From assembly GCA_964016885.1 (NCBI GenBank), contig OZ024742.1:333498001-333562000 (forward strand): a stretch of 64,000 bases of DNA, read 5' to 3'. Within the stretch, counting starts at the first letter, position 1; every line of letters begins with the position of its first letter. Positions 3,415 to 52,461 of the stretch are shown one piece after another. The stretch comes from Eledone cirrhosa (lineage: Eukaryota). The notes under the pieces are model-generated. The model saw only the letters and a program-made list of their open reading frames with translations. It was not told the origin of the DNA and made no database searches. A program made the translations under genes and the position numbers.

Positions 3415-3449
3415 GTGGTCTTTCCCATCTTTTCCACTCTATTTTAAAC

Positions 3450-6400: not shown

Positions 6401-6505
6401 CTTGCCAGTTCTGATAAACTCTACAGGCATGGAGGTGCCGTCAGCCGGGCATGTCCGAGATGCGCGCAGGTCGATGAAACCGTCCTGCACGCACTCGCCC
6501 AGTGT
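3450..6505 (+). pseudogene. Tx1 ORF2 (APE endonuclease-RT), disrupted
   Basis: Motifs GDWN, TDH, GYWKLN, KSPGLDG, FRPITLLN, DQSKAFDRV and AYADD are split over several frames with stops. Confidence 0.9.
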
Positions 6506-6592
6506 CAGAAATGCCCATTTGTACCGTCCTGTATTGTCCTGTACTGTCCTTAATGTCTACTTTATGTGAACCCTTGTGGTTAATAAAGAAAA

Positions 6593-6669: not shown

Positions 6670-7465
6670 CAGTTGCATTTATCTTGCTTTATTTTCATAC
6701 GAGTTATCACCAATTCACATCCAGTGACCTCAAGACACAGCAAGGTCCGCCATGTCCAAGAAAGAACATACATACACACATTTGCATATTTAGGTATTTA
6801 GACTTGAGATGTACTTATATTGACAGAATCTTCCTTAATATATGAGCAGTTCCCATTAGTACTATCTTTTGTTTTTTCTCCTATACGCGGGTTTCCTGGG
6901 ATTTGCAATAAGTAATCATTATACCACGTAGGTATCATTCCTAGAGCGCCTACAACCACTGGTATTGTTTTAGTTCTCAACTTCCAGATTTTTCCAATTT
7001 CTATCTCCAGGTTTTATACTTGCTCAATTTTTCAAATGTTTTTATAGATACATTCTTATCTATTGGAACAGGCATATCAATCAGCAGGCATACCCTCTTT
7101 TTAAAGTCCTTCAGTATGATATCAGGTCTATTTGCGTCTATTATTCGGTGTGTGTGGATGCTAAAGTTCAACAAGATTGAGATGTGAACTTTTTCAAGTA
7201 CGGAGGTTTTTGATGATACCACCAATTCCTTTGATGGGGCAGGTCAAAATGCTTCCACATTATCCAAAGTATATATTGTGCAGCTCTGTCATGCCTGTTT
7301 AACTATAGTACTGCACATTGAAATTATATCATCGATGGTCTCTGGTTGTTTTTTACATACACGGCATAATGGGGTGCATCCATTTTTTTATTATGTAGGT
7401 TTTATTTTGTTAGCAGTTACTGGTCTTGTGCTGATATAATCAATCCTTCAGTCTCCGATTTCAGT
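6670..7465 (-). mobile_element. Dong family B 3' fragment (3'UTR plus endonuclease domain), decayed
   Basis: Matches 19735-20538; encodes ANRPDIILKDF...LIDMPVP and IPVVVGALG. Confidence 0.9.
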
Positions 7466-8697: not shown

Positions 8698-8910
8698 GAA
8701 TGCCATGGTTGACGGAGGCTCGGCTCTGTAATGTATAGTAATTTTTAACCGTTAAAACAATTGTAAATTGTTTAAAACTTGAACCAAATTGTTGATAAAG
8801 ACACCCTCCTCCTCGTGAGAGGGGTCTTTCTGTCCGTTATTTGGCCCTTCGGGGTTAAATAACCAGTTATTGGGGTTTTGTACCCAAAATTTCATTTTAA
8901 ACAAAAAAAC

Positions 8911-11007: not shown

Positions 11008-11042
11008 GTGGTCTTTCCCATCTTTTCCACTCTATTTTAAAC

Positions 11043-14000
11043 ATGACCTCACTCAGAATAGGCAGCATAAATGCGCGTGGCTTGGGGTCGTCATGGAAGC
11101 AGGGTCACCTGCTCAACGACCTCAGGTCACTAAACATAGATGTAGTGGCCATCAGCGAGACCAGAATCTCCGAAGCACGGGCCTTCGCACCGATCTTCGG
11201 CGGCTACGATGTGTACGCATCTCCCAGCCGTCCTGGATCGGGTGGAGGAGTTGCTGTGCTTTTTCGGAGAGGTTTGGATCTCGCCATACGGGCCATCTTC
11301 CTGGACCCAGAGGGTAAGCTGGTGGTGCTGGACGTGACCAGCGGAGACGGGCAAGCTTTCAGGCTAGTGGCCGTCTATGCCCCGACAGGAGCAGGGCGAC
11401 CTGATTTCTTCCGGCGTCTGGAGACCTTTCTTGGAACGTCCCGCTCTTTAGTGTTAGTGGGCGACTGGAACGGGATCTTAGATGCACGCTGGGACTGTGT
11501 GGGATTAGCGGATAGGGGTGGAGGGTGCAAGAGCCTCACCAACCTGCTCAGGCGTTTTGAACTGTCTGACAGGTACCGATTGGATTTCCCGAATGTGCCA
11601 ATGTGGACTTGGACAAACCGCATAGGGTCATCCAGATCATATCTAGATAGAGTATTTTGTAGGGAAATAGATAGGTCTAGCATAGGCTGTCCACAATTCA
11701 AGATAGTCAGCTACACGGACCACAAATTCGTGACCTGTGTGCTTGACTTAGATAGGCTTCATAGACGAGGACCCGGCTACTGGAAGCTAAACGCGTCCTT
11801 ACCAGCGCGCAAGGCCTACAGAGACCGGATTAGCGAACTAGTTAAGCGGGCGTTGACGGGGGCCATCGTCAACAACAAGTGGTGGTTTGCTCTGAAAAGA
11901 GCGATTAGAATAGAATCGATTAGGTTTAGTAAGGCTTTAGCAATAGAGAAAAATAGAGCAGAGGGAGAACTAGTTAGAAAATTAGACGAGGCGCTTAGCA
12001 AAGGCATTGCGACCGACGTGCTTGCGGCGAAATTGGCCCTTGACCAATTCTTCAATGCAAAGCACGAAGGCTGCGTTGTCAGAGCTAGGGTGCGTGCTCT
12101 CAGACACGAGGGGACGAAAGCCGTTCAATGGGCCCGAGTGGCGGAGGCGCGTCGTGGCAACAAAGCCACGATCCGGTCTTTGGTGGACCACGACGGGCGC
12201 ATGCTACTCGATCCCGGGCAAATGTGTGAAGCTTTTCAGCGACACTTCGCTCAGCTGTTCGGGGGCAGCGGGGGGCCGGGTAGAGGGATGGACTTTAGTG
12301 TCTACCTCGACGGACTGCCGCGGCTCTCGGCCACTGAGGCGAGGTGTTGCGAAAAGCCGATAACAGCCGCTGAAGTACGGGAGGCAATGACTGGCTGCAC
12401 AAGGGGTAAATCGCCTGGTTTGGATGGTCTGCCCTATGAACTTTACGTACAGATGCCAGACTTGTTAGGAGGCCTTTTGGCGGACGTCTACTGCAACTGG
12501 CAACAGAACGGGAGAATTCCCAGTTCTGTGAGCCGAGGAGCGGTGGCACTGCTGAGAAATGATCCGAACAAGGGGGATAACATAGACAATTTCCGGCCCA
12601 TAACTCTGCTAAACACAGAGTTTAAGATTTTGGCCAAGGTGCTAGCAAAGAGGTTGGCGCTTGTCGTTGGTGGTCTGGTGGGAGAGGCGCAGACATGCGC
12701 CATTCCCGACAGATCCATCCACGACAACCTCCACCTCATGCGATACATCGTAGAGAGGGTAGCTAGGGAACCTGGCACGGGTGGGTCCTTGATAAATTTA
12801 GATCAGTCGAAAGCTTTCGATAGGGTCGACCATCGTTACCTAGCGGCAGTCCTGAGGGCGGCTGGCTTTGGGCCCGTCTTCAGAGGCTGGATCCCTGCCA
12901 TGCACAGCGACATCTGCTCTGTGGTGAGAGTGAACGGTCACCTGTCGGAACCGTTCAACATCATGCGCTCGGTCCGCCAAGGATGTCCCCTCTCGTCCCT
13001 CTTGTACGTATTGACTCTCGAGCCATTACTGCACAAACTGGAGACGTTGAGGGGAGTCCCGCGCGAACTAGGATGCGGAAGAGCCGTGTCCGCATATGCG
13101 GACGATGTCACCGTAGTGGTGTCGAACGCCAAACACATCGAGGCGATCGGCACTACACTAAGAGAATACGAAGCGGTGACAGGAGCAATGATCAACCAGG
13201 AAAAGTCAGTGGGCCTGCAGCTCGGCACCTGGAGAGGAAGGTCCATGCCGCCCAACAGCGTCGTCGGGCGCTGGACGGACGGACCGGTTAAATTGCTAGG
13301 GGTCTGGTTCGGTCCGTACCTCCAGACGGACAAAAACTGGGACGAAGTGACGAGCAGGGTGGCTTCTCTCACCCAGAAATGGGCGGAGAGGAAGCTATCC
13401 CTGAAAGGTCGAGCGGAGGTGGCTAACGCGTATATCGCGTCTGTCATCTGCTACCGCCTAACCGTCGTACCTTGTCCTAAGCCTCGCCTGACTACGCTGG
13501 AGCGTTTGCTCTTTCGCTTCTTGTGGAAGGGACGTGCTCCGATGGTCAGGCGGTCCATCTGTTGTCAACACACGCTACATGGAGGGCTGGGCATGCCGTG
13601 GCTGATGATGCGCAGGCACGCGCTCAGGCTACGACATCTCCACCTCTTCCTCGACGGTGATCAGGTGTGGTCGCCGTTTGCTAGACGCGTTTTTCCCCAG
13701 CTCGTTTCCTTGACGGAGCTGCAGTCCTGGGTCAAGCGAAGACCGAGAGGGAGCGCCTGGAGACTGGAATGTCTTCAGGCGCTCACAGCCCTCGACCAAT
13801 CGGGCAATGTGATCGGTGGAAACTCCACCTCGGCGTTCTACAGAGGATTAGTGGAGGGGAAGAGCGACGACGTACTTGGGGAAACTCTAGGCGTCGACGA
13901 AAATCAACTAGCCAATCTCTTCGGAAGAACTTTCGGGCCAGGGCCTATGGACAACTTCCAGAAATCTCTGGCCTGGCAGTGCTACCGAGGAGCCTTGCCA

Positions 14001-14461
14001 GTTCGGGATAAACTCTACAGGCATGGAGGTGCCGCCATCGGGCATGTCCGAGATGCGCGCAGGGCGACGAAACCGTCCTGCACGCACTCGTCCAGTGTCC
14101 GAAAATTGCTGACTTGTGGGTTTATGTCGAACACCTGCTGTCGCGTTTAGGACGGATCCAGCTATCATCTGAGTCTATCGTGAGGATTGCCCCGCCCTCC
14201 TCCTTTAGCCGGGAAGGGCAGGCAGTTTTTATCTGTCTGGTGGCCATGGCGAAAGAGATAGTATGGTGGACACGTTTGAAAGGGCTGAAGACGAGCACTT
14301 ACCTCTCCGGTGATGCTCTGATTGACTTTTTCAAATTTCATTTGAAAAGGAAAATCAGAGTAGAGAAGGAAGTGCTCTCTTCCCAGCATTTTGTTGAAAG
14401 ATGGGTGAGAGAAGCAAGAATGGCCCGAGTGAATGGGCCGACTCTGAGTAAATATCTGTAA
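11043..14461 (+). CDS. Tx1 ORF2: APE endonuclease, reverse transcriptase and C-terminal CCHC finger (one 1-nt frameshift near 14038)
   Basis: Uninterrupted ~1000 aa with SINARGL, SET, GDWN, SYLDR, TDH, GYWKLN, RQGCPLS and AYADD. CPRC-x8-HALVQC continues in the next frame to the stop at 14461. Confidence 0.93.
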
Positions 14462-14721
14462 ACTAAAGGTGGAAAACTGGGAGAGGGCACTTGCCTTGGT
14501 GGTCAGGGTCATTGTGGCTTTTTACTGGGCTTTCTCCACAAATGTCCCTCCGAAGTCTCCCCCCTATTGGGGAATTTTTCATTGTTATTTTCATTGTTAT
14601 TTTTGTTACATCCTCTGTTTTTGTTTTTTTACACGCAGAAATGCCCATTTGTACCGTCCTGCATTGTCCTGCACTGTCCTTAATGTCTACTTTATGTAAA
14701 CCCTTGTGGTTAATAAAGAAA

Positions 14722-14771
<50 letters not shown>

Positions 14772-14851
14772 GTTATTCCTTGAATCTCAGTCATTGATGT
14801 TGGTTAACTGGAAAGTCCGTTGGATTGAATATCAAGCCACTACCTGCAGCT

Positions 14852-17800
14852 TCAGATATTCAGGACGTATCGGAGGGTTCTTGCCGTTCCAAGCAAGCAT
14901 GCCTTTTGAAGCGTTCCAAAAAGCGTGAAGGGGCCGATTTTCTTTAACCATCCCTGGAAACCTTTGGAGATAGTCCCCAGTGCGCCTATGACAATCGGGA
15001 TCACTTTGACTTCATGGCAGTTCCAAATCCTTTTCACCTCCCACTTTAGGTCCTGGTATCGGTTAATTTTCTCCCTCTCCTTCTCTTGCACTCTCGTGTC
15101 GAACGGGCAGGCCACATCCACAATCAGGCACGATCTTTTTTCTTTGTCCACAACCACAAGGTCAGGTCTATTGTGTTCCAGTTTTTTGTCCGTCTGTATC
15201 CTAAAATCCCACAGCACCTTCACCTGACTGTTCTCCATCACCGCCTCTGGCCTATGCTCATACCATTTCTCAGAATGTGGTAGATTGTTTACTTTGCACA
15301 GGTGCCAGTGGATCACCCTGCCCATCACATCGTGTCTCCAGCCCTTATAGTGGGTCTGGGCTAGGTGTTTACACTCGGACACAATGTGAGCCACAGTCTC
15401 CTCTCTCTCTCCACAGATCCTGCACAGCGGGCTAGCCTCCTCCTTGTAGATATGGTGCTTCAACCACTTCGTTTTGAGGGCCTGCTCCTGCGCAGCCATT
15501 AGCATTCCTTCTGTAGCCTGTTTGAGGTCTCCTCTTCTCAACCAGTTCCATGTCTGTGGATCTCTAAATTCAGTTTTCTCAAAGAAGGTACTATGAAGGG
15601 ATTTTCCCTTAAGGCTGCTCTTCCTCCTTGATGTTATTTCCTCCTTGGATATCCCCTGGCCTACTGTCCCCTCCTTCAGTACAGCTCTGAGCATTGGCTC
15701 CTTACTATAGGTCACGTATTTGTATAGGTTGTTTTTCTCCATCTGAACACAGTCCTCTATGCTGATAAGACCTCTTCCACCCTCAGATCTCCTTAGGTAG
15801 AGTCTATCGACATCACTCCTCTTGTGGAACATGTTGTAGATAGTCAATAGCTTCCTAGTCTTCCTATCCATTTCTTTTTGTTCAGCAACATTCCATCTCA
15901 GAATTCCCGCACTGTACCTAATAATAGACACAGCTCGGGAATTTACTGCGCTTATGGCATTTCTGCTGTTCAGATGTGACTTCAATACGCTCCTTACTCT
16001 CCGAATGTATTCAGTTCTTAACAATTCCTTCATTTTTTTGTTCTTTATGCCATCAGCCTCCAGAACGCCCAAATACTTGTATCCTTCCTCAGAGTCAATT
16101 TCCTTTATCATCTCACCTGTTGGTATCTGGATCCCGTTACTTCTGCTCAACCTACCCCTCCTCATCACAATGACTCCACATTTACCAATACCAAACTGCA
16201 TACATATATCACTGCTGAAAATACGGACAGTGTCAACAAGCACATCCAACTCCTTCTCACTTTTCCCGAAGAGCTTAAGATCGTCCATGAAGAGGAGGTG
16301 ATTGATGGTAAGCTCTCCCCTTCCCAACTTGTATCCTGCTCTCACTTTTCGCAGCATAATGGTCAAGGGCATCAGGGCAAGGACAAACAACAGAGGGGAC
16401 AGGCTATCTCCCTGGAAGATACCTCTCTTGATCTTCACGCTTCCCAAGGATACTCCAGTTGATGTCAACTCTGTCTCCCAGGACCCCATACTCCTGCCCA
16501 GCAACTGTCTGATGTTATCTGCCACCCTGAACATCTCCAGGCTTTTGGTGATCCAGGAATGAGGCACCATGTCAAATGCCTTTCTGTAGTCTATCCATCC
16601 CATGGCAAGATCAGTGTGTCTCCTCCTGCAATTCCCCATTACCATCTTATCAATAAGCAACTGGCCCTTTGTACCACGTGACTTCTTTCAGCATCCTTTC
16701 TGTTCGTCCGGTAACAAGTTGTTTGTGTGGAGGTGATGGTAGATTTCCTCAGACACAATGCTCGTCAACAGTTTCCACATTACGGGCAGACATGTGATAG
16801 GTCTATAGTTGGTAACATCATTACCCTTGATTCGGTCTTTCATTATCAGAACTGTGGTACCTTTTGTCAACCACTCTGGCACCTCACCCGACACCAAGCA
16901 GTCATTGAACATGGCCGTCAGCTTCGGGTGGAGGGATGTTAAATGTTTAATCCAATACCCCTGCACACCATCTGGGCCTGGTGATTTCCAGTTGGTTAGT
17001 TCTTTGGCTTGCCCCTTAAGAGTTTCAACTGTGATACTCAAATCAGTCTGTTGTTGTGCCTGCTCACCGATCTCCCTCTGTACTGTCTCAATCCACCCTG
17101 CCTGGGCATTGTGTCTAACATCCTGCTCCCATATTCCTCTCCAGAATGTTTTAGCTTGTTCCGCCCCAGGGATCAAGTCGTTGCCTCTTTCTTTCCCCTC
17201 AAGCTGTCCAAACAGCATCTTCTGGTTGTTGTCGAACATGCGGTTCTGTTTATACTGACTGACTCTGTTCTCGTATCGCCTGATTTTGGCACTCTTTGCT
17301 ACAATGCGTTGCTTCAATTCCTCTATGATAATATTTAGCTTTTTACTCCTAGTTTTGTATTTTATTTCCAGTCTATTTTTAGTGCCTATGTTTTTTAGTG
17401 TCCCATTCAGTAGTGACTCAAGCTTTCCTATGTCATTTCTCATTTCCCCGATTTGCCCACTCAGTCGCTTCTTCCACCACGGCTCTGCTCTTTCTTGTCT
17501 GTTGTTTCCTCTCGCTTTTATACCAAGTAGTTTCCTCACCGTATTTGCTGTTGCTTTGAGGATATTGTTGCACTGGTGAAGACTCCTCGCCTCAAGGTAT
17601 GGGATGACTTTGTTTACCTTAGCTGTTGTTTCTTTTAACTTTTTCCTGTCTACAAATCTTAGGTTCATAGGTCTCCCACTATCATTGTTCAACTCATCTA
17701 CCACTAAATTTAGGATGTCAACCGAATCTTGTCCTAGCCCGTCAGCATTCATCTCCTCAGTGGCCGTATCTCTGTTCCAGGTATTATTTATCTCAGTATT

Positions 17801-18244
17801 CAGATCATTGTCTGCTTCGGGTGGTTCCTCCGTTCTCAGGACCTCCTCACCTTCATTTCCCGCCACCTCGCTTGTCTGGCATACTACACCCGCCATCTCC
17901 AAGCCATTCTCTCTGCTCAGTTCCTCCAGTTCCAGCTCGCTTATCCACCCATTAGTTCTTATTACCCGAGCCTGCCCGGCCAATTTTTGTTCATCTAATT
18001 TAAATAAACCAATCTCGTTCCAGATGTTATGCATCCGTCTCCTGTAGCCCCTCTCCTTGGGGTTACTTTTCAGGTAGCATTGCATAACAGTTCTATTCAA
18101 TTCTTTCGTCCAGTTGGTTCTGGCCCCTTTCCTTCTTCTTCTTGCTCCAACATCAGCAGTATTTGGTTGACAGTCAGGTTCCTGCTGCTGAGCCAGGGGG
18201 CACCTGTTGGGTGAGAGTCTGTCACATGACGTTCTAGTCTCCAT
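14852..18244 (-). pseudogene. Dong-A ORF (RT, CCHC, PD-(D/E)xK endonuclease), one in-frame stop
   Basis: ORFs 16688-18244 and 14852-16660 are in the same frame, separated by CGA>TGA at 16688-16690. Motifs WTKELN..VMQCY, GIFQGDSLSP, FMDD, CRICGEREETVAHIVSEC, RHD and RPDLVVVD...DVACP. Confidence 0.93.
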
Positions 18245-18824
18245 TTCACCGTTATTCGAACTGTTTATGTTCGATATTTAAACACTCTTATCGAGGATTG
18301 GCGAATGTATGTTTACATAGCCATCTGTGGATCCGCCATCCCACTTGGCCCTTGTGTGGCATTATCACCACGCTGTATACGGACACACATAAACAAACAA
18401 ACACACGGGCAGAAAGGGCCCCAAAAATGAATAAGCATAAGTTTCATTGTAATGTAGTATTCGAATGTCTGACTTAGTTTTTGTTTTTTAAGTTTTACTT
18501 TTTCCCCCCTCTTCTTCTCTGTCCGTCCGCCTGCTTTTCTCTTCATTCTTATTTTCTTTACGTTTTTGGGGTTTCTTTTTTGTTTTTGTTTTTTTCTGTT
18601 TGTTTTTCTCGTTTTTTGCTGTTGTTGCTGTGCTGCTGTGGTTTTGTTGTTTGTTTTTTCTTTTTTCTTTTGAGTCTATCTATATATTTTGATGCCTTCC
18701 TCTTTGTTAGTAGTAGGAATTCTATAATGTGGAAGTGGCAGCCAGCAGAGACTGGCGGCGTTGCCGATACTGAGACAGTGGTGGTGGTGATGTCGATACC
18801 GAGGCAGTGGTGGCGGTGATGCGA

Positions 18825-19489
18825 CCGTATTACTGTAGTGATGGTGCTGTAGCGGTGGCAGCAGCAGTGAAGGAGTCAAGGGGTGGTGGCGGCGGTGATG
18901 GGATAGTGGTGGTAATGATGGCCGTAGTGAGCGGTGGCGGTGAATGTGAAAATGCTGTTGTGTTTAGTGTACACAGATGATGGGGTGGGTGGTGTATCTA
19001 GTTTCTGGTGTTGGTGAGTTTAGCTGTCCTATATAGTGTAGCCAGAGGAGAGGAGGGGGGGGTTCTTCTTCTTCCATTTATAGCCATTTTATTTTTTTAT
19101 TTTTTTATTTTTTTTTTTTGGATATACAGTGTACAATACAAAGTTGAATATTTGAATATTTGAGCCGTATTAGTGTAGTGATGGTGCTGTAGCGGTGGCA
19201 GCAGCAGTGAAGGAGTCAAGGGGTGGTGGCGGCGGTGATGGGATAGTGGTGGTAATGATGGCCGTAGTGAGCGGTGGCGGTGGCGGTGAAAATGCTGTTG
19301 TGTTTAGTGTACACAGATGATGGGGTGGGTGGTGTATCTAGTTTCTGGTGTTGGTGAGTTTAGCTGTCCTATATAGTGTAGCCAGAGGAGAGGAGAGGGG
19401 GGGGGGGTTCTTCTTCTTCCATTTATAGCCATTTTTTTTTTTGGATATACAGTGTACAATACAAAGTTGAATATTTGAATATTTGAGCC
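18825..19489. repeat. ~330-340 bp tandem duplication within the Dong-A1 5' leader
   Basis: 18825-19164 is repeated at 19165-19489; the sister leader at ~36950-37260 has one unit. Confidence 0.9.
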
Positions 19490-19659
19490 TTATAACAATA
19501 TATTTGGGGTCCGAATTTTTTGGGGCTCAAGCCGGGTGCTTTACGTAGCATTTGTACTAAGAGTTGTTATTTCACAAATGATTTAAATATGTTAAAAATT
19601 CAAAACTTACGGGAGCGATTTCATGACCTCCGTCACCTCGTGCGTCTTCTTCCCTATTC

Positions 19660-19734
<75 letters not shown>

Positions 19735-19735
<1 letters not shown>

Positions 19736-22700
19736 AGTTGCATTTATCTTGCTTTATGTTCATACGAGTTATCACCAAGTCACAACCAGTGACCTCAAGA
19801 GACAACAAGGTCCGCCATGTTCAAGAGAGAACATACATTTTCACACATGCATCTTTAGTGTTTAGACTTGTGATGTACTTATATTGACAGAATCTTCCTT
19901 AGTATATGGGCAGTTCCCATCTTTTGTATTTCTCCTATACGCGGGTTTCCTGGGATTTGCGATATGTAATCATTAGACCCCTTAGGTATCATTCCCAGAG
20001 CGCCTACAACCACTGGTATTGTTTTAGTTCTCAATTTCCACATTTTCCCAATTTCTATCTCCAGGTCCTTATACTTGCTCAATTTTTCAAATGTTTTTAT
20101 AGATACATTCTTGTCTATTGGAACAGACATATCAATTAGCAGGCATACCCTCTTTTGAAAGCCTTTCAATATTATATCAGGTCTGTTTGCATCTATTTTT
20201 CGATCTGTTTGGATGCTAAAGATCCACAAGATTGAGATGTGATCTTTTTCAAGTATGGGAGGTGGTTGATGCTCCCACCAATTCTTTTGATGGGGCAGGT
20301 CAAAATGCTTACACATTATCCAATGTATGTATTGTGCAGCTCTGTCATGCCTGTTTAGGTATTCGGTTGGAGCTATAGGACTGCACATTGAAATTATATG
20401 GTCAATGGTCTCTGGTTGTTTTTTGCATACACGGCATAATGGGCTGCACCCATTTTTTATTATGTTGGCTTGGTAATTTTTTGTTGGCAGATACTGATCT
20501 TGTGCCGATATAATCAGTCCTTCAGTCTCCGATTTCAGTCCAGAGGATGCCAACCACTGATGGGTTAAAGTTTTGTCAACATCAGGATTGTTAGCTCGCT
20601 CTGGGTATTTTCCATACAGAGGCTTTTCTTGCCATTTCTTAGCCAGTTTCTGTAGCAGTTCTTTCTTTGCAGTTACTTTTACCTGCTTTGCTTTTTCTGT
20701 GTTTTCCATTTCAGCAGTAAATGGGACTTCTCAAATTTGGAGTCCGTTACTGTATCTTTGTGCATCTTTTGTAATGGAATATGATCTTTTGATGCTTTCG
20801 TGTTTCAAAACGAGTTTGATCATCCAATCATGTGATTCCCTTAGATACGTAAATAATCCAATTGTTGCAGTTTTCAACGCAATGTCTAACTGGATTAACC
20901 CACGTCCTCCTTCTTTCCTAGGGAGATATATTCTATCTATATCTGCCTTAGGGTGATGCATTCTGTGCATGGTTAAGAATTTTCGAATTTTCGTATCGAG
21001 CCTACGGATCTCTGTGCTTGACCAGTTGATGACATTGTAACTGTAGGTTACTACTGGTATGGCAAGCGTGTTTATGGCATCGATCCTATTCCTTGCATTC
21101 AATTCCGTTCTTAAGATTGCTCTTACTCTGCGGTAACATTCCTTCCTTATCCTTTCCCTCATTGTCGAGTGCTTGATTCCGTCTCCTTCACAAACACCTA
21201 GGTATTTGTAAGTTTTTTCTTGATCAAGTTCTCTTATCACGTTCCCCCGATCAAGATTAATGTCTGAACTCTTCAGCAGCTTTCCTCTGGTGAACGTTGC
21301 TTTGGCGCATTTATCTAGTCCAAACTCCATTTTAATTTCATCACTGAACTGCTTCACAGTGGATAATAGCCCTTGCAATTGTTCATCATTTTTTGCAATT
21401 AGTTTCAGGTCATCCATGTAGAACAGGTGATTAATGGTTTTGTCATAGACTTTATATCCATCTTTTGTTTTATTGAGCATTTTACTTAATGGTATAAGTG
21501 CGATGCAGAATAAAAGCGGTGATAAAGAGTCACCCTGAAAAATTCCACAATTAATATTAACTTCTCCAGCTTCCAGTGATTTTGTTTCACTATTCAAAAG
21601 GAGTGTCGTTTTCCATGTCTTCATACTGAATGACAAAAACCTCCTGACAACGGGGGATACTTTGAAAATCTCTAAACATTTTTCAATCCAACTGTGTGGC
21701 AAACTATCAAATGCATTTTTATAATCTATCCAAGCAATCGATAGATTTTTGTGTCTATTATGACAATCTTCCAGTATCATTTTGTTAACCAGAAGCTCAT
21801 CCTTACAGCCATATGAGCCTCGTTTACACCCTTTCTGCTCAATGGGAAATAGGTCATTTGTTATCAGGTGGTCATATGTGTATTCAGTTAGGACTGATGT
21901 TAACATTTTATACATTGTGGTCAAGCAAGTTATCGGTCTGTAATTTTGGGGATTGTTTGTCTCATCATTCTTCGGAAGCAGGAATGTAATGCCGTTAACT
22001 AGCCATGAAGGTATCTTTTCTGGCTCCTTAACTATTTCATTGTAAAGTTGGGCTAACAGCTCATGAGACTCTGTGAAGGCATTTATCCAAAAGTTTTGTA
22101 TTTTGGCTTTTCCTGGGGATTTCCATTTGCTGGTTTTTCTTAGAGCCAAGCGCAACTGTTCAACTGTTATATTTTCCCATGTTTGTTCCTCAAGATGAGC
22201 TGTATCTTTCATTTGTCTGTCTATCCATGAGGCATGTATGTTATGAACTTTTTCTTCGGCCCAGATCTTTTCCCAGAATTCTTGCACTTCCTCCTTGGGT
22301 GGTATTGATTTAGCAGTTATTGTTGACTTACCAATTTTTCTGTAGAAGTTTCTTTGGTTGTTTTTGAACATATTATTGTCCTTATAGAATCTAGATCGTT
22401 TTTCAAAGCGCCTTATACGAGCAGCTTTGGCCGACACTTTTTGCTTGATTATTTCTATCAGCATGTCTATGTCACATGTTGATTTTATACTGTACTTTTT
22501 TTTCTATTTTCTAAGTTTAGTTTGTTTAACATGTTCACCTACTTTATAGTTTGTTAAAATTTCTATGTCAGATCGGAGAAGGTTTATTTGGCTATTGATG
22601 TTCTCTTGCCAAGTAGATTTCTTGTGGGAATTCCTTTGATTGTTCATCTTCACTCCACATAAGTGAGTGGTGACTTTAGCCGATGCATAATAGAGATGAT

Positions 22701-24668
22701 TTAAATCAGTAATGTTTAGTTTGTTTGTGATGATAATGTTTTTGAGAATTATGTTAGTCTTGCGTATTATCTTTTGGTTCTGTTTGGAGTTCTGGATCTT
22801 AGGGAGGGTGTCTCGTTGCCCCATGTCAGATTCTTTCATTTTCATCCACTCGATCATAATTTCATCCTTCAAGTTGGCAAGTTCGTTCTCATTCATTTCT
22901 TTATCATTTACGATCTCATTATTTTCATTTGGAATTTCATCCTGAGCATGCACTCCCTCCACTTTTTCGATCCTTTCTTTAATTTGTTCTGATGCCAGTG
23001 ATTCCGCCCCAACCCTGGTATTCGAAGTGTTACAGTTTACTTCGTTTTCACTGACACATGTTTCATTTTCCCTTCGCTGACTTTGTGCTAATAGCTTGAT
23101 CTGATCAATTTCTATATCAGTTAGTAACTTTTTTCTTACAATATTTCTTCGTATATTGGCTAGTTTGTTACTGTCAATATAGCCTCTGTTTTCGGGATGT
23201 TTCTTTTTCCAGTTGATATATGTCTGTTCTGTATTCGATGTATTTGATGGGTAGTACATGGCAGTGTAGAAAGCCTCAAGGACTTCTTTATTATCTTCCC
23301 TTGACCATTTTTCTCTCTTTTTCTTTCGATTTCTTGGTGGTGAGCATGGAGGGCCAACAGTAGGAGTATTCCGATTATGGGAGGTCTCCAGCTCCGAAGT
23401 GATGGGAAGGTTTGAACCATTAGCTGATTTTTCGACCCCAGTCTGGTTCCTCTCTGAGGGACGCGGCCCTTTTTTACCCGGGTGATGGCCGATCCGGTAT
23501 GAGATTTTATCATAAGACATTTACTTTATTTTGTCGCGTTTTATCCTTATCCGCCAAGGGGTAATCATTTCGTGTTACCACTTCTAGAACGAGTGTCAAC
23601 CAAGACTAGAAGGGTAGTTCTCCCCTAGAGACACGGCTATTCCCCGCCGGCCGCCATCCCGGTATTTCTTGGTCACGGGGTTTTCTTTTTGTTGTTTTTT
23701 TAAATTGTTATTATCATTAGTGGTTCCTTAATGTGAGCATTGCGTGGCTTAAGAATGAAATTATTAATAACTGTCTCCACTCCAGGCACAAGGCCAGCAA
23801 TCACCCAGTGCATTACAATAATATAATATACTTTTTGTTGTAGTTGGCTGTTATTGTTGTTGGCTATGTCGGTTGTGGTGCCGGGGCTTTTTATATTGTT
23901 GGTGAGGAAGGGGTGAACCAACAGTCCCATAGTTGTTGATGTTGACGTTTGGCCGTGGCCAGGTCACTAAGTCAATCTATTTATATCTTTTGCTAGCCTC
24001 TCCCTTGTCTAGTGATACCGCCACCTTCCCCTTTCTCTCTCAAAGTAACAGGGTAATAGTGGTGGTAGCATTGGAGGAGTGGTGGCGGCGGGGAGATGTG
24101 GGAGACAGTAGCGGCGGTATCGATACTGAGACAGTGGTGGTGGTGATGTCGATACCGAGGCAGTGGTGGTGGTGATGTGATCGTATTACTGTAGTGATGG
24201 TGTTGTAGCGGTGGTAGCAATGAAGGAGTGGTGGCGGCGGTGATGGGATTGTGGTGGTAATGATGGCAGTAGTGAGTGGTGGTGGTGAAATTGCCGTTAT
24301 CTGGCTGTTGTGTTTAGTGTACACAGAGAGGTGATGGGATAGGTGTTGTATCTAGTTTCTGGTGTTGGTGAGATTGGTGTTGTTTGGCTGTTCTATATAG
24401 CGTATACAGAGGAGGGGGGGGGGTTCTTCTTCCATTTATAGCCATTTTCTTTTTTGAATATACAATGTACAATACAAAGTTGAATATTTGAATATTTGAG
24501 CCTTATAACAATATATTTTGGGTCCGAATTTTTTGGGGCTCAAGACGGATGCTTTACGTAGCATTTGTACTAAGAGTTGTTATTTCACAAATGATTTAAA
24601 TATGTTAAAAATTCAAAACTTACGGGAGCGATTTCATGACCTTCCGCCACCTCGTGCGTCTTCTTCCC
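19735..24668 (-). mobile_element. R4/Dong-like retrotransposon, family B, full length
   Basis: Its 3'UTR and ORF differ from family A, but it has the same 5' terminus GGGAAGAAGACGCACG; bounded by (ATT)n and (TTC)n(ATT)n. Confidence 0.93.
19879..23520 (-). pseudogene. Dong-B ORF (~1210 codons), two in-frame stops
   Basis: Three ORF pieces share one frame, with stops at 22504 and 20731. Motifs KWSREDN, GIFQGDSLSP, YMDD, CRVCKKQPETIDHIISMC, RHD and RPDII...DMSVP. Confidence 0.92.
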
Positions 24669-24679
24669 TTATTCTTCTT

Positions 24680-24793
<114 letters not shown>

Positions 24794-28210: not shown

Positions 28211-28264
<54 letters not shown>

Positions 28265-28265
28265 T

Positions 28266-31200
28266 CCTTGTGTCTCAGTCGTTGATGTTAGTTAACTGGA
28301 AAGTTTGTTGGAATGAATATCAAGCCACTACCTGCTGCCTCAGATATTCAGGACGTATCGGAGGGTTCTTGCTGTTTCCAGCAAGCATGCCTTTTTGAAG
28401 CGTTCCAAAGAGCGGGAAAGGGCCGATTTTCTTTAACCATCCCTGGAAACTTTTGGAGATAGTCCCTATTGCGCCTATGACAATCGGGATCACTTTCACT
28501 TCATGGCAGTTCCAAATCATTTTTACCTCCCACTTTAAGTCTGGTATCGGTTAATTTTCTCCCTCTCCTTCTCTTGCACTCTCGTGTCGAATGGGCAGGC
28601 CACATCCACTATCAGGCACGATCTTTTTTCTTTGTCCACAACCACCAGGTCAGGTCTATTGTGTTCCAGTTTCTTGTCCGTCTGTATCCTAAAATCCCAC
28701 AACACCTTCATCTGATCGTTCTCTATCACCGCCTCTGGCTTATGCTCATACCATTTCTCAGAATGTGGTAAATTGTTTACTTTGCACAGGTGCCAGTGGA
28801 TCACCCTGCCCATCACATCATGTCTCCAGCCCTTATAGTGGGTCTGGGCTAGGTGTTTACACTCGGATACAATGTGAGCCACAGTCCCTCTCTCTCTCCA
28901 CAGATCCTGCGCAGTGGGCTAGCCTCCTCCTTGTAAATATAGTGTTTGAAACACTTCGTTTTGAGGGCCTGCTCCTGCGCAGCCATTAACATTCCTTCTG
29001 TAGCCTTTTTAAGGTCTCCTCTTTTCAACCAGTTCCATGTCTGTGGATCTCGAAATTCAGTTTTCGCAAAGAAGGTACTATGAAGGGATTTTTCCTGAAG
29101 GCTGCTCTTTCTCCTTGATGTTATTTCCTCCTTGGACATCCCCTGGCCTATTGTTCCCTCCTTCAGTACAGTTCTGAGCATTGGCTCCTTACTATCAGTC
29201 ACGTATTTGTGTAGGTTTTTTTTCTCCATCTAAACATAGTCCTCTATGCCGATAAGACCTCTTCCACCCTCAGATCTCCTTAAGTAGAGTCTATCGACAT
29301 CACTCCTCTTGTGGAACATGTTGTAGATAGTCAATAGCTTCCTAGTCTTCCTATCCATTTCTTTTTGTTCAGCAACATTCCATCTCAGAATTCCCGCACT
29401 GTACCTAATAATAGACACAGCTCGAGAATTTACTGCACTTATGGCATTCCTACTGTTCAGATGTGACTTTAATACGCTCCTTACTCTCCGAAGTTATTCA
29501 GTTCTTATCAATTCCTTCATTTTTTGTTCTTGATGTCATCAGCCTCCAGAACGCCCAAATACTTGTATCCTTCCTCAGAGTCAATTTCTTTTATCATCTC
29601 ACCTGTTGGTACCTGGATTCCGTTACTTCTGCTCAACTTACTCCTCCTCATCACAATGACTCCACACTTACTAATACCAAATTGCATACATATATCATTG
29701 CTGAAAGTACGGACAGTGTCAACAAGCACATCCAACTCCTTCTCACTCTTCCCGAAGAGCTTAAGATCGTCCATGAAGAGGAGGTGATTGATGGTAAGCC
29801 CTCCCTTTCCCAACCTGTATCCTGCTCTCACTTTTCGCAGTACACTGGTCAGGGGCATCAGGGCAAGGACAAACAACAGAGGGCACAGACTATCTCCCTG
29901 GAAGATACCTCTCTTGATCTTCACGCTTCCCAAGGATTCTCCAGTTGATGTTAACTCTGTTTCCCAGGACTTCATACTTTTGCCAAACAACTGCCTGATG
30001 TTATCTGCCACCTTGAAGATCTCCAGGCTTTTGGTGATCCAAGAATGAGGCACCATGTCCAATGCCTTTTTGTAGTCTATCCATCCCATGGCAAGACCAG
30101 TGTGTCTCCTCTTGCAATTCCTCATTACCATCTTATCAATAAGTAACTGGTCCTTTGTACCACGTGACTTCTTTCGGCATACTTTCTGTTCGTCCGATAA
30201 CAAGTTGTTGGTGTGGAGGTGATGGTAGATTTCCTGAGACATAATTCTTGTCAACAGTTTCCACATTACGGACAGACATGTGATAGGTCTATAGTTGGTA
30301 ACATCATTACCCTTGATTCGGTCTTTCATTATCAGAACCGTGGTATCTTTTGTCAACAACTCTGGTACCTCACCTGACATCAAGCAGTCATTGAACATGG
30401 TTGTCAGTTTCGGGTGGAGGGTTGTTATATTTTTAATCCAATACCCCTGCACACCATCTGGGCCAGGTGATTTCCAGTTGGTTAGTTTTTTGGCCTGCCC
30501 CTTAAGAGTTTCAACTGTGATACTCAAATCAGTTTGTTGGCGTGCCTGTTCACTGATCTCCTTCTGTACTGTCTCAATCCACACTGCCTGGTCATTATGT
30601 TTAACATCCTGCTCCCATATTCCTCTCCAGAATGTTTTAGTTTGTTCCGCCTCAGGGATCAAGTGGTTGCCTCTTTCTTTCCCTTCAAGCTGTCCAAACA
30701 GCATCTTCTGGTGTTGTCGAACATGCGGTTCTGTCTATACTGGCTGACTCTGTTCTCGTATCGCCTGATTTTTGCACTCTTTGCTATAATGCGTTGCTTC
30801 AGTTCCTCTCTGATAATATTTAGCTTTTTCCTCCTAGTTTTGTACTTTATTTCCAATCTATAATTAGTGTCTATGTTTTTTAGTGTCCCATTCAGTAGGG
30901 ACTCAAGCTTTCCAATGTCATTTCTCATTTCCCTGATTTGACCACTCAGTCGTTTCTTCCACCATGGCTCTGCTCTTTCTTGTCTGTTGTTTCCTCTCGC
31001 TTTTATACCAAGTAGTTTCCTCACCGTATTTGCTGTTGCTTTGAGGATATTGTTGCACTGGTGAAGGCTCCTCGCCTCAAGGTATGGGATGACTTTGTTT
31101 ACCTTAGCTGCTGTTTCTTTTAAATTTTTCCTGTCTACAAATCTTAGGTTCATAGGTCTCCCACTATCATTGTTCAATTCATCTACCACTAAGTTTAGGA

Positions 31201-32870
31201 TATCTACCAAATCTTGTCCTAGCCCGTCAGCATTCAACTCCTCAGTGGCCGTATCTCTGTTCCAGGTATTATTTATCTCAGCATTCAGATCAGTGTCTGT
31301 TTCGGGTGGTTCCTCCGTTCTCTCGACCTCTTCACCTTCATTTCCCACTGGCTCGTTTGCCTGGCATACTCCACCCTCCATCTCCAAGCTAATCTCTCTG
31401 CTCAGTTCCTCCAGTTCCAGCTCGCTTATCCACCCATTAGTTCTTATTACCCGAGCCTGCCCGGCCAGTTTTTGTTCATCTAATTTAAATGGACCAATCT
31501 CGTTCCAGATGTTATGCTTCCTTTTCCTATAGCCTTTTTCCTTGGGGTTACTCTTCAGGTAACATTGCATAACAGTTCTATTCAATTCTTTCGTCCAGTT
31601 GGTTCTGGTCCCTTTCCTTCTTCTTCTTCCTCCGACACCAGCAGTATTTGGTTGACAGCCAGGTCCCTGCTGCTGAGCCAGGGAGCACCTGTTGGGTGAG
31701 AGTCTGTCACATGACATTCTAGTCTCTATTTCACCGTTATCCGAACTGTTTAGGTTCGACATTTAAACACTCTTATCGAGGATTGGCGAATGTATGGTTA
31801 CATAACCTCCGGTGAATTACCTGTCTCCGGTGGTTTCGTCACTCCGCGTGACTTTTGTGTGGCATTATCACGCTGTAGACGAACCCAAACAAACAAACAA
31901 ACAAACAGGCAGAAAAAACTCCAAAAATGAATAAGCATAAGTTTCATTGTAATGTAGTGTTTGAATGCCTGACTTAGTTTTTCCCTTCCCTTCTCTGTCC
32001 GTCCGTTTGTTTTTCTCTTCATTTTTATTTCCTTTACGTTTTTCGTTGTTGCTGTGCTGCTTTGATTTTGATTTTTTTTTTTTTTTTTTTATTTCGACCG
32101 GGTCATCAATTCATTCTATTTATAAATTTTGATGTTTTCCTTTTTTAGTGGGAATTCTACAATGTAGCAGGGGATAGCGGGGGAGAATAGCGGCGGTAAT
32201 GATATTGAGGCAGCGGCGGCGGTGGTGGTGGCGGTGCTGTGCTAGCAGCAACTAGCAGGTGGTAGTGGGAGAGAATAGCGGCGGTAGCGATAGTGAGGCA
32301 GCGGTGGTGGTGATGTGGTCGTATTACTGTAGTGATGGTGTTGAAGTTGGAGTAGAAATTTGAGTCGACTTGACCAGAGTTTTCATCGTGGTAGTGTTGG
32401 TGGTATTGGTGGTGAAATTATCTTTAGTGAAATTATCGTTAGTCGCGTATATGTGTTGACATTTATCCATAATATTGGAATTAAACATTTTGTTAAAACT
32501 AAAACTTGAGGCAATAGTAATAGTAATTATTATTATTATGCTGAGATTGGTGGTGGTGGTGGAGAAATTGCCATTATCGGGCTGTTGTGTTTAGTGTACA
32601 CAGAGGGGTGATGGGGTAGGTGGTGTATCTAGTTTCTGATGTTGGTGAAATTGCTGTTTTTGGCTGTTCTATATAGTGTAGACAGAGGGGGTTTTCTTCC
32701 ATTTATAACCATTTTCTTTTTGAATATAAAATGTATAATACAAAATTGAATATTTGAGCGATATGACAATATATTGTGGATCCGAATTTTTTGGGACTCA
32801 AGCTGGATGTTTTATGCAACATTTGTACTAAGAATTGTTATTTCACAATTGATTTAAATATGTTAAAAAA
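28266..32870 (-). mobile_element. Older, diverged Dong-A subfamily copy, near full length; ORF 28340-31762 disrupted
   Basis: Many substitutions, stops and frameshifts. Retains the ATG (MSNLNSS) where the younger copies have ATA. The leader lacks its first ~55 nt. Confidence 0.92.
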
Positions 32871-32900
32871 ATTATTATTATTATTATTATTGTTGTTATT

Positions 32901-35900
32901 CCTTGAATCTCAGTCATTGATGTTGGTTAACTGGAAAGTCCGTTGGATTGAATATCAAGCCACTACCTGCAGCCTCAGATATTCAGGACGTATCGGAGGG
33001 TTCTTGCTGTTCCAAGCAAGCATGCCTTTTGAAGCGTTCCAAAAAGCGTGAAGGGGCCGATTTTCTTTAACCATCCCTGGAAACTTTTGGAGATAGTCCC
33101 CAGTGCGCCTATGACAATCGGGATCACTTTGACTTCATGGCAGTTCCAAATCCTTTTCACCTCCCACTTTAGGTCCTGGTATCGGTTAATTTTCTCCCTC
33201 TCCTTCTCTTGCACTCTCGTGTCGAACGGGCAGGCCACATCCACAATCAGACACGATCTTTTTTCTTTGTCCACAACCACCAGGTCAGGTCTATTGTGTT
33301 CCAGTTTTTTGTCCGTCTGTATCCCAAAATCCCACAGCACCTTCACCTGATTGTTCTCCATCACCGCTTCTGGCCTATGCTCATACCATTTCTCAGAATG
33401 TGGTAAATTGTTTAGTTTGCACAGGTGCCAGTGGATCACCCTGCCCATCACATCGTGTCTCCAGCCCTTATAGTGGGTCTGGGCTAGGTGTTTACACTCG
33501 GACACAATGTGAGCCACAGTCTCCTCTCTCTCTCCACATATCCTGCACAGTGGGCTAGCCTCCTCCTTGTAAATATGGTGCTTCAACCACTTCGTTTTGA
33601 GGGCCTGCTCCTGCGCAGCCATTAGCATTCCTTCTGTAGCCTTTTTGAGGTCTCCTCTTCTCAACCAGTTCCATGTCTGTGGATCTCTAAATTCAGTTTT
33701 CTCAAATAAGGTACTATGAAGGGATTTTCCCTTAAGGCTGCTCTTCCTCCTTGATGTTATTTCCTCCTTGGACATCCCCTGGCCTACTGTCCCCTCCTTC
33801 AGTACAGTTCTGAGCATTGGCTCCTTACTATAGGTCACGTATTTGTATAGGTTGTTTTTCTCCATCCGAACACAGTCGTCTATGCTGATAAGACCACTTC
33901 CACCCTCAGATCTCCTTAGGTAGAGTCTATCGACATCACTCCTCTTGTGGAACATGTTGTAGATAGTCAATAGCTTCCTAGTCTTCCTATCCATTTCTTT
34001 TTGTTCAGCAACATTCCATCTCAGAATTCCCGCACTGTACCTAATAATAGACACAGCTCGGGAATTTACTGCGCTTATGGCATTTCTGCTGTTCAGATGT
34101 GACTTCAATACGCTCCTTACTCTCCGAATGTATTCAGTTCTTAACAATTCCTTCATTTTTTTGTTCTTTATGCCATCAGCCTCCAGAACGCCCAAATACT
34201 TGTATCCTTCCTCAGAGTCAATTTCCTTTATCATCTCACCTGTTGGTATCTGGATCCCGTTACTTCTGCTCAACCTACCCCTCCTCATCCCAATGACTCC
34301 ACATTTACCAATACCAAACTGCATACATATATCACTGCTGAAAATACAGACAGTGTCAACAAGCACATCCAACTCCTTCTCACTTTTCCCGAAGAGCTTA
34401 AGATCGTCCATGAAGAGGAGGTGATTGATGGTAAGCTCTCCCCTTCCCAACTTGTATCCTGCTCTCACTTTTCGCAGCATAATGGTCAAGGGCATCAGGA
34501 CAAGGACAAACAACAGAGGGGACAGGCTATCTCCCTGGAAGATACCTCTCTTGCTCTTCACGCTTCCCAAGGATACTCCAGTTGATGTCAACTCTGTCTC
34601 CCAGGACCCCATACTCCTGCCTAGCAACTGTCTGATGTTATCTGCCACCCTGAAGATCTCCAGGCTTTTGGTGATCCAAGAATGAGGCACCATGTCAAAT
34701 GCCTTTCTGTAGTCTATCTATCCCATGGCAAGATCAGTGTGTCTCCTCCTGCAGTTCCCCATTACCATCTTATCAATAAGCAACTGGTCCTTTGTACCAC
34801 GTGACTTCTTTCGGCATCCTTTCTGTTCGTCCGGTAACAAGTTGTTTGTGTGGAGGTGATGGTAGATTTCCTCAGACACAATGCTCGTCAACAGTTTCCA
34901 CATTACGGACAGACATTTGATAGGTCTATAGTTGGTAACATCATTACCCTTGATTCGGTCTTTCATTATCAGAACTGTGGTACCTTTTGTCAACCACTCT
35001 GGCACCTCACCCGACACCAAGCAGTCATTGAACATGGCCGTCAGCTTCGGGTGGAGGGATGTTAAATGTTTAATCCAATACCCCTGCACACCATCTGGGC
35101 CTGGTGGTTTCCAGTTGGTTAGTTTTTTGGCCTGCCCCTTAAGAGTTTCAACTGTGATACTCAAATCAGTTTGTTGGCGTGCCTGTTCACCGATCTCCCT
35201 CTGTACTGTCTCAATCCACCCTGCCTGGACATTATGTCTAACATCCTGCTCCCATATTCCTCTCCAGAATGTTTTAGTTTGCTCTGCCCCACGGATCAAG
35301 TCGTTGCCTCTTTCTTTCCCCTCAAGCTGTCCAAACAGCATCTTCTGGTTGTTGTCGCACATGCGGTTCTGTCTATACTGACTGACTCTGTTCTCGTATC
35401 GCCTGATTTTTGCACTCTTTGCTACAATGCGTTGCTTCAGTTCCTCTATGATAATATTTAGCTTTTTCCTCCTAGTTTTGTATTTTATTTCCAGTCTATT
35501 TTTAGTGCCTATGTTTTTTAGTGTCCCATTCAGTAGTGACTCAAGCTTTCCTATGTCATTTCTCATTTCCCCGATTTGCCCACTCAGTCGCTTCTTCCAC
35601 CACGGCTCTGCACTTTCCTGTCTGTTGTTTCCTCTCGCTTTTATACCAAGTAGTTTCCTCACCGTATTTGCTGTTGCTTTGAGGATATTGTTGCACTGGT
35701 GAAGGCTCCTCGCCTCAAGGTATGGGATGACTTTGTTTACCTTAGCTGTTGTTTCTTTTAACTTTTTCCTGTCTACAAATCTTAGGTTCATAGGTCTCCC
35801 ACTATCATTGTTCAATTCATCTACCACTAAATTTAGGATGTCAACCGAATCTTGTCCTAGCCCGTCAGCATTCATCTCCTCAGTGGCCGTACCTCTGTTC

Positions 35901-37426
35901 CAGGTATTATTTATCTCAGTATTCAGATCATTGTCTGCTTCGGGTGGTTCCTCCGTTCTCAGGACCTCTTCACCTTCATTTCCCACTGGCTCGCTTGTCT
36001 GGCATACTACACCCGCCATCTCCAAGCCATTCTCTCTGCTCAGTTCCTCCAGTTCCAGCTCGCTTATCCACCCATTAGTTCTTATTACCCGAGCCTGCCC
36101 GGCCAATTTTTGTTCATCTAATTTAAATAAACCAATCTCGTTCCAGATGTTATGCATCCGTCTCCTGTAGCCCCTCTCCTTGGGGTTACTTTTCAGGTAA
36201 CATTGCATAACAGTTCTATTCAATTCTTTAGTCCAGTTGGTTCTGGCCCCTTTCCTTCTTCTCCTTCCTCCAACATCAGCAGTATTTGGTTGACAGTCAG
36301 GTTCCTGCTGCTGAGCAAGGGGGCACCTGTTGGGTGAGAGTCTGTCACATGACGTTCTAATCTCCATTTCACCGTTATTCGAACTGTTTATGTTCGATAT
36401 TTAAACACTCTTATCGAGGATTGGCGAATGTATGGTTACATAGCCATCTGTGGATTCGCCGTTCCACTTGGCCCTTGTGTGGCATTATCACCACGCTGTA
36501 TACGAACACACATAAACAAACAAACACACAGGCAGAAAGGGCCCCAAAAATGAATAAGCATAAGTTTCATTGTAATGTAGTGTTCGAATGTCTGACTTAG
36601 TTTTTGCTTTTTAAGTTTTAGTTTTTCCTCCCTCTTCTCTGTCCGTCCGCCTGCTTCTCTCTTCATTCTTATTTTCTTTACGTTTTTTTTTTTTTTTTTT
36701 TTTTCTCTGTTTGTTTTTCTCGTTTTTTGCTGTTGTTGCTGTGCTGCTTTGGTTTTGTTGTTTGTTTTTTCTTTTTTCTTTTGAGTCTATCTATATATTT
36801 TGATGCCTTCCTCTTTTTTAGCAGTAGGGATTCTATAATGTGGTGGCAGCAGCCATCTTGGAGAAGTGGAAGACTGGCGGCGGTAGCGATACTGAGACAG
36901 TGGTGGTGGTGATGTCGATACCCAGGCAGTGGTGGCGGTGATGTAACCGTATTACTGTAGCGGTGGTAGCGGTGGTAGCAGTGAAGGAGTGAAGGGGTGG
37001 TGGCGGCGGTGATGGGATAATGGTGGTAATGATGGCCGTAGTGAGCGGTGGTGGTGAAAATGCCGTTATCTGGCTGTTGTGTTTAGTGTACACAGGTGAT
37101 GGGGTGGGTGGTGTATCTAGTTTCTGGTGTTGGTGAGTTTGGCTGTTCTATATAGTGTAGACAGAGGAGAGGAGGGGGGGGGTTCTTCTTCCATTTATAG
37201 CCATTTTCTTTTTTGGATATACAGTGTACAATACAAAGTTGAATATTTGAATATTTGAGCCTTATAACAATATATTTTGGGTCCGAATTTTTTGGGGCTC
37301 AAGCCGGGTGCTTTACGTAGCATTTGTACTAAGAGTTGTTATTTCACAAATGATTTAAATATGTTAAAAATTCAAAACTTACGGGAGCGATTTCATGACC
37401 TCCGCCACCTCGTGCGTCTTCTTCCC
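32901..37426 (-). mobile_element. Dong-A full-length copy
   Basis: Same termini as 14778-19654, without the leader duplication. Confidence 0.95.
32975..36367 (-). pseudogene. Dong-A ORF, one in-frame stop
   Basis: ORFs 34718-36367 and 32975-34693 are in the same frame, separated by TGG>TAG at 34718-34720. Confidence 0.93.
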
Positions 37427-37460: not shown

Positions 37461-37699
37461 TATTATTATTATTATTATAGTATTGTTGGCGACCTACATA
37501 TTAAATCGTATCATCGTGAGCTCCGAAAGGTTTGTTATTTTCAGTTGTTCAAAATTGCCATTCATGGAAAATGTTATGGTTAACTGTATATAAGTGCACA
37601 TACATTGTTATCTGAAAAGGACACACAAAAAGATTTGGGCCTTGAGCCCCAAATTAAAACTTTTATAATTATCAAACAAAAATTTTTCTTTGAAACATC

Positions 37700-39660: not shown

Positions 39661-39694
39661 GTGGACTTTCCCATCTTTTCCACTCCATTTCAAC

Positions 39695-43264: not shown

Positions 43265-49373
<6,109 letters not shown>

Positions 49374-52423: not shown

Positions 52424-52451
<28 letters not shown>

Positions 52452-52461
<10 letters not shown>

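Follow-up and report, generated by a model that had tools for sequence, protein, structure and literature searches.

Two retrotransposon families, A and B, lie in one 64,000-nt stretch of Eledone cirrhosa DNA (the window). Their proteins are clearly different and their 5' leaders nearly the same. How did two distant families come by one leader, in which direction did it pass, and what does it do?

Two divergent families with nearly the same leader

The first ~49 kb of the window (from nt 1) are a retrotransposon array within ATT/TAA runs. A and B both lie on the minus strand and each has a single ORF with a reverse transcriptase (RT; Pfam RVT_1), CCHC and PD..D motifs being read in the translations. 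Pfam found no APE domain (Exo_endo_phos) in either ORF. A Myb-like W(T/S)xE motif was recognised by eye in both N-termini, where Pfam gave no match. Insertion is into (TAA)n, with a clean TAA junction at 103 of 125 tips and TAA plus tip repeats at most of the others. By ORF layout and TAA target both families fit the R4/Dong clade as delimited in the available text of PMC7998251. The elements of that clade (Bombyx; ostracod Dong1/2) likewise have a single RT/CCHC/PD..D ORF and a (TAA)n target; they have no N-terminal zinc finger and carry a Myb-like W motif, of which the motif recognised here may be the counterpart, but in the families described here the 5'UTR is ~1.0–1.5 kb long and begins with a leader common to two lineages.

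The full ORFs of A and B are 34% identical (1172 aa) and their RT cores 44% (333 aa). The bodies beyond nt 620 gave zero blastn matches at E<=1e-3, and the 3' ends match over 7 nt only; the proteins are thus as divergent, and the 3'UTRs as unrelated, as an earlier note on this DNA had said. A quick maximum likelihood tree of 36 RT regions, built from unnamed relatives with rows under 700 aa excluded, grouped A apart from B, with each of them closer to proteins from other sources; no named Dong protein was among the 240 matches listed. Anchors at the ORF start counted at least 1958 copies of A and at least 1055 of B in the 3.0-Gb genome.

At the tip, the leaders of B (24668–24481) and A (37426–37240) are 98.4% identical over 188 columns, differing by one inserted A and two substitutions, which are the roughly three differences counted in the earlier note. 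Over leader nt 57–380, B matches young A at 310 of 320 positions, while an old A copy matches young A at 275 of 302, so the B leader stands nearer to young A than the old A leader does, again as first described; over 375 nt the identity of the B leader to young A is 97.5% (substitutions only). The homology does not, however, fade inward over ~700 nt, as had been thought. It stays at ~90% (with gaps) to nt ~577 and then ends at a sharp junction relative to young A, and the B leader stretch up to nt ~712 is common to older A subfamilies only. The collinearity of this older remnant with the oldest A subfamily extends to GTATCACTAGACAA (24005). The four leader-bearing copies (37426, 24668, 19654 and 32869) are indeed present in the window, but they do not all lack a spacer: B has a decayed TAA spacer ~370 nt further in (23721–23683), before its ancestral 5' end.

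Table. Features of the A and B copies in the window (positions are those of the window; B nt, numbering from the tip of the B copy)
Feature	Position	Strand	Basis or remark
Second young A copy; leader with ~320-nt internal tandem duplication	14778..19654	-	
Full-length B copy, form B2, 4,936 nt	19733..24668	-	Junction pattern at G000:C3:333522081-333522107
B ORF: Myb-like WS motif, RT, CCHC, PD..D endonuclease; 2 in-frame stops in this copy	19879..23520	-	
Buried ancestral B 5'UTR	23521..23682	-	L182 alignment; 3 helices at 23680-23635
Decayed (TAA)n, fossil target of the ancestor of B (B nt 948–986)	23683..23721	-	Aligned with L182 TAA run
SINE-like dispersed repeat, 3' end and ATT tail, in B 5'UTR (B nt 854–907)	23762..23815	-	
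Older captured leader remnant, B nt 578–712, and a further ~50-nt A-derived piece	23957..24091	-	
B2 junction: loss of ~230 nt of B1 sequence that lay between short C/G-rich repeats	24081..24107	-	66 exact copies
Recently captured A-type leader, B nt 1–577; first letters GGGAAGAAGAC; contains TATAAAT at nt ~229 and GTAAGT at nt 46	24092..24668	-	
(GAA)n run between TAA target and leader tip; repeats letters of the tip	24672..24709	-	
Old A copy, older leader type, 5'-truncated at leader nt 57	28262..32869	-	
Full-length young A copy; leader at 37426-36830; ORF 36367 (ATG) to 32975, 1 in-frame stop	32900..37426	-	
Tentative, partial HDV-like fold directly upstream of the A ATG (P2, P4 and L3 core present; P1.1 and catalytic C absent)	36368..36428	-	

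Leader forms of B across the genome

B occurs with three leader forms, an older one, B0, and two recent ones, B1 and B2. B1 has an A-type leader followed by ~230 nt of B0, and B2 is B1 without those ~230 nt. Exact junction matches numbered 399 for B0, 27 for B1 and 66 for B2, the last on 11 contigs; these and the anchor counts are lower bounds, and bodies were recovered for 26 B1 and 29 B2 copies. The recent leader is therefore not confined to one B copy, being carried by at least 27 + 66 of them on many contigs. Nor does the leader mostly stand free, the other way in which the proposed capture could have failed: each of 30 copies taken in order of position ran into an A or B body, and no third-family leader was found in those 30 or in 81 leader starts. 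These 30 were the first along contig C1 among 523 exact matches to a 20-nt tip pattern, which misses the commonest young-A tip; they ran into B in 21 cases and into A in 9. The best 30 matches to the young leader comprised 29 A bodies and 1 B body, and the best 30 to the inner 5' region of B comprised 15 B0, 7 B1, 3 B2, 1 mosaic and 4 too truncated to assign.

Over its first 375 nt (substitutions only) the B1 leader is 98.6% identical to young A, 97.8% to middle A and 86.6–87.8% to B0, and the bodies of B0 and B1 differ by 1.4%. The B0 leader is ~90% identical to that of old A. The oldest A subfamily, with a ~1.4-kb 5'UTR, stays colinear with it throughout nt 1–~670 at ~89% (88–90%, 6 loci). 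The idea of a leader that moves between families is upheld by the trees, which conflict: the leaders of B1 and B2 fall among those of middle and young A (support 62), with B0 apart (support 100), while the RT tree separates A and B. B1 follows A to ...TATAG-AATT and then B0 from AATT-ACTATT, with a 4-nt AATT overlap. Because B1 thus carries A-only sequence in a B frame, A was the donor. B0 does not fall within A in the leader tree, so for the older capture the direction, again from A to B, rests on the buried 5' end described below.

Sub-lineages of B2 share linked tip and derived body changes, indicating that the chimeras served as active templates. The body tree of B (26 B1, 29 B2, with B0 rows biased to the best matches) is star-like and is therefore uninformative on a single origin of B1 and B2. 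The tip haplotypes GGTAG, GGCGG and GACGG turn up repeatedly, in A as well as in B and in different B sub-lineages, which may reflect further short exchanges or parallel mutation. B0 outnumbers B1 and B2 together by ~4:1; the recent leader has thus not taken over, and the counts lend no support to a selective gain. Contigs of two other organisms span leader and B body with a B0-type join, at a depth that is low and too thin for dating.

Some single loci have other arrangements. In L002:1340-1343 a young-A leader (nt 1–345) is joined straight to B nt ~776, and L036 is a B0 copy carrying an extra A-type leader piece. B copies also occur on one strand at a regular spacing of ~5.0 and ~5.3 kb (G000:C5:88763455-88773428; G000:C1:131996036-132011875), by tandem duplication or serial insertion.

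The buried 5' end and the function of the leader

B opens with the A leader, which is followed inward by a spacer, the SINE scrap, the former target, the former 5' end and lastly the ORF. A metagenome scan provided 39 relatives; viral contigs had none. The relatives L182 (59% aa), L183 and L184 have no leader; their short 5'UTRs follow (TAA)n immediately. B nt 987–1142 aligns with L182 from the first base after the L182 TAA run, with a score of 79.5 that was reached in 0 of 1000 shuffles (best shuffle, 56). B's own ancestral 5' end is thus buried ~990 nt inside the element, a comparison in which the tip depends on a single full-length relative, L182, and the last ~60 nt on three further ones. 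The SINE-like repeat between leader and old target is found outside the B context, as longer elements, in 17 of 124 matches (80–91% identical in the 14 listed).

Three helices can be drawn in the first 46 nt of the buried end, and in each of them B and L182 differ by one two-sided, covarying change (n=2); the layout was chosen after inspection, and 6 and 50 of 1000 shuffles can form it. Rfam gave no twister match at the buried end, on window positions 23400–24000 or on L182. Twenty distinct loci (31 rows), ~2% of B copies, start at the buried end after a pure TAA run, compared with 3, 2 and 1 starts at control A-run sites in the B 5' region. Seven of these leaderless copies were inspected and have no fixed variant in common. 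The 20 may be products of residual processing, a minor start, or relics of a leaderless ancestor. Finding this ~2% class needed a targeted pattern; without one, the 5' ends of 30 copies each of A and B did not cluster at buried sites. A decayed copy at 6900–7400 was also used to look for an old subfamily of B without the leader; the idea was rejected, the best matches being only 89–91% identical, with no subfamily among them. As a separate observation, B relatives and a neighbouring element have in their 5'UTRs a GGGCTC...AGGAGAAGG.AAACTC motif (L183:200-330, L186:130-200, L222:2530-2600), which we take to resemble RTE-type 5'UTRs; L183 and L186 had no Rfam match.

The leader itself has a very regular start, 116 of 125 tips beginning at the same GGGAAGAA. 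A piece of the tip is repeated upstream in 15 of the 125 (16 with L176), evidence that the RT primes anew when it reaches the end of a template, which agrees with the in vivo template jumps of R2 in the available part of PMC3414825. A descriptor of the HDV-like fold found 0 of 8 representative leaders, canonical examples in L227 and L229 being found as a positive control. Rfam detected no ribozyme in the leader and gave a weak drz-agam-1 match on L229. Folding z-scores of the leader were −1.8 to +1.8, and its first 50–120 nt folded no better than shuffles. Leaders of A also have tandem, monomer-like duplications of ~320 and ~450 nt. Given the fixed start inside transcriptionally blank TAA runs, the lack of a ribozyme fold and these duplications, the simplest reading is that the leader is likely to be an internal promoter, as judged from sequence features.

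A perfect GTAAGT at +45 of the leader (A: 37382–37377) and a T-rich/TACAG stretch before the A ORF (36500–36491), both on the minus strand, suggest a 5'UTR intron. Fusion of a spliced leader ATG to the RT ORF was considered and rejected, the ATG being in frame in 0 of 53 A copies. A search for spliced young-A retrocopies gave one match, a point mutation; the pattern used would overlook other subfamilies and any exon 2 whose first letter is G.

The partial HDV-like fold before the A ORF was present in three subfamilies and was matched by 0, 0 and 1 of 1000 shuffles, with a descriptor made afterwards. Rfam was blank there, and other copies showed no two-sided change. There was no excess of 5' ends at this fold (6 loci of ~1958) or at a second A site (4–5 loci). 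Among the relatives of A, L220 (43% aa) was the only one with a 5' end, and its head is unrelated to the leader. L220:131-330 starts after (TAA)n and looks like a captured 5' module; we take this head to be tRNA-like with a 5S-rRNA-like box.

Routes of capture and known systems

The transfers, their junctions and the buried end are seen directly in the copies. From these we infer, with a probability of about 0.6, that B took the A leader at least twice and that the chimeras then multiplied, that the leader is likely a promoter, and that capture 1 likely went by read-through and capture 2 likely by template switch. An ancestral B, starting at its TAA target, would have sat ~280 nt downstream of an old-A 5' piece, and a transcript from the A 5' end would have run across the spacer into B. 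B's own RT would then have copied the read-through RNA whole, fixing leader, spacer, SINE scrap and old target as B0. The presence of leader, SINE tail, decayed TAA and old 5' end in this order is what points to read-through; flanking DNA and the old 5' junction are kept, as in 5' transduction, and the source locus was not found. In capture 2, nt 1–~600 of an A intermediate between the middle and young subfamilies would have replaced the front of B0 at the AATT overlap to make B1, and a ~230-nt deletion in B1 would have given B2, the form in the window. The buried original 5' end is probably still used by a small minority of copies. Tree conflict, a defined breakpoint and an amplified chimera are together the marks of an inter-family 5'UTR transfer. 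The capture of a 5' cassette between the families therefore stands as first proposed, but it was not a single recent event, since an older leader had been captured before. The suggested route, RT template jumping or gene conversion, survives for capture 2, where a template switch is likely, while capture 1 looks like read-through.

A template switch and DNA-level recombination would leave the same AATT junction. The B1 exchange and the tip variants might thus come from recombination or gene conversion in shared TAA arrays, with the older leader as homology and no template switch. A and B do adjoin in the arrays, they had ~670 nt in common at ~89% after capture 1, and tip haplotypes recur in both families, with L002 and L036 as one-off chimeras. 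However, the B1 breakpoint lies outside the long homology, at a 4-nt overlap with duplication of leader sequence, which homologous conversion would not require; there are also GACGG-tip B2 copies without the young-A marker 3 nt away, so that this variant may be a parallel mutation. We regard recombination as unlikely, although by no means negligible. That the B copy in the window arose by a single local recombination or by misassembly can be given practically no credence: the repetitive setting is all that speaks for it, and it is refuted by the 66 exact junction copies and the linked sub-lineages.

It is distinctly unlikely that A and B separately picked up a third-party module, such as a host promoter with exon 1 and intron or the head of another element. 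The perfect GTAAGT at +45, the T-rich/TACAG stretch and the possible buried former 5' end of A (its partial HDV-like fold, in three subfamilies) would suit such an origin, as would L220, another Dong relative with an unrelated, captured-looking head. Against this, the leader was neither free-standing nor attached to a third family in the copies and starts covered, there was no spliced young-A retrocopy by the pattern used, no in-frame leader ATG in 53 A copies and no accumulation of 5' ends at the A fold, and B0 and B1 contain A-internal sequence, so that the leader of B came from A, whatever the source of A's. We find it more doubtful still that the leader tip is an RNA-processing signal, a self-cleaving ribozyme whether of a familiar or of a new fold, with transcription by read-through. 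In the available text of PMC3774820, Bombyx Dong and R4 cleave themselves at the 5' junction by an HDV-like ribozyme; in the families studied here, the 5' end is very uniform, and in several minimum free energy folds nt 1–44 are enclosed by a short GGGA/TCCC helix. Unlike in Bombyx Dong, however, the tip had no HDV-like ribozyme by a descriptor with a working control, no Rfam ribozyme, and folding like that of shuffles.

A broader reading is possible rather than probable, namely that B is switching 5' strategies, with a captured promoter placed before an ancestral self-processing fold that is still leaky. A would have done the same earlier over a decayed HDV-like ribozyme, and the lineages would keep exchanging the promoter, sharing one regulatory module. 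The B fold would then be an undescribed one with a twister-variant-like layout and inverted pseudoknot polarity. In the available text of PMC8501958, the twister T-variants of Perere-3 resemble the buried end in part (A-run, helix, inner helix, and a loop able to pair downstream), but in B the G/C polarity of the loop and of the downstream strand is reversed, there is no linker, and Rfam gives no match.

The 5'UTR of mouse L1 contains tandem monomers. As far as the available text of PMC3600994 goes, mouse L1 5' termini move between co-active families, polymerase strand switching being favoured. The trading of 5' ends and the tandem, monomer-like 5'UTR are alike in A and B, but the mouse partners are closely related, whereas here the ORFs are 34% identical, transfer is repeated and one-way, and both the former 5' end and the former target site are still present in the recipient. 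SVA_F1, which captured MAST2 exon 1, is a case in which an upstream transcription unit became the 5' end of an expanding subfamily in one event, as with B0; there, by the part of PMC12593883 available, a non-autonomous element acquired it by splicing from a host gene, while here the donor is a retrotransposon and an unspliced spacer is kept. R2/R1 hybrid SIDEs also join a 5' module to an element of the same locus, through an RLE-type RT that jumps at the 5' end; as described in the portion of PMC3414825 at hand they are short, non-autonomous and borrow a ribozyme, whereas B is full-length and coding, with a putative promoter. Pr77 of L1Tc/ingi is likewise a 5' signature across divergent retroposons and a proven internal promoter, but it is 77 nt long, is also an HDV-like ribozyme and is argued to be vertical (accessible text of PMC4035085), compared with ~600 nt transferred here. 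Octopus genome papers list Dong-R4 families, and nothing on their 5' ends was found in the available text (PMC13282606, PMC8967140, PMC9115989). We found no account of leader exchange among Dong families in the literature, although subscription papers, supplements and Repbase/Dfam, which lay largely outside our scope, may record it.

The transfer of 5' ends as such is already known, and what is new here is repeated capture with a buried old 5' end. The gain of new 5' ends by non-LTR elements is usually inferred once the traces are lost. Here one family keeps the junctions of both routes, read-through capture (spacer, old target, old 5' end) and later microhomology replacement. Target-site sharing lets very distant families trade regulatory DNA, and would couple their expression and host silencing. 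The leader is a candidate promoter and the buried 62-nt structure of B a possible self-cleaving RNA, while knowledge of Dong proteins and targeting is unchanged.

Several other elements were noted. The same ATT runs hold, on the plus strand, a third family, C (1050–6591, 8698–14724, 37480–43263 and 43308–49265), with APE and RT in two ORFs, which is L1/Tx1-like and not Dong. The 5' region of the copy at 37480 is unrelated to that of the other three, and this family may also have swapped 5' ends. Canonical HDV-like motifs lie beside RLE-type RT genes at L227:2025 and at L229:1751, 8684 and 10138, on contigs filed in bacterial MAGs; L227, L229 and the L218–L230 contigs look like eukaryotic contamination. 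An RT element (weak RVT_1) at 60787–63999 (+) runs off the window end and is unrelated to A, B and C by blastn. At 53593–54199 there is a ~600-nt AT-rich imperfect palindrome (89%), MITE-like, flanked by an inverted pair at 52451–52885 and 54191–54579 (80%).
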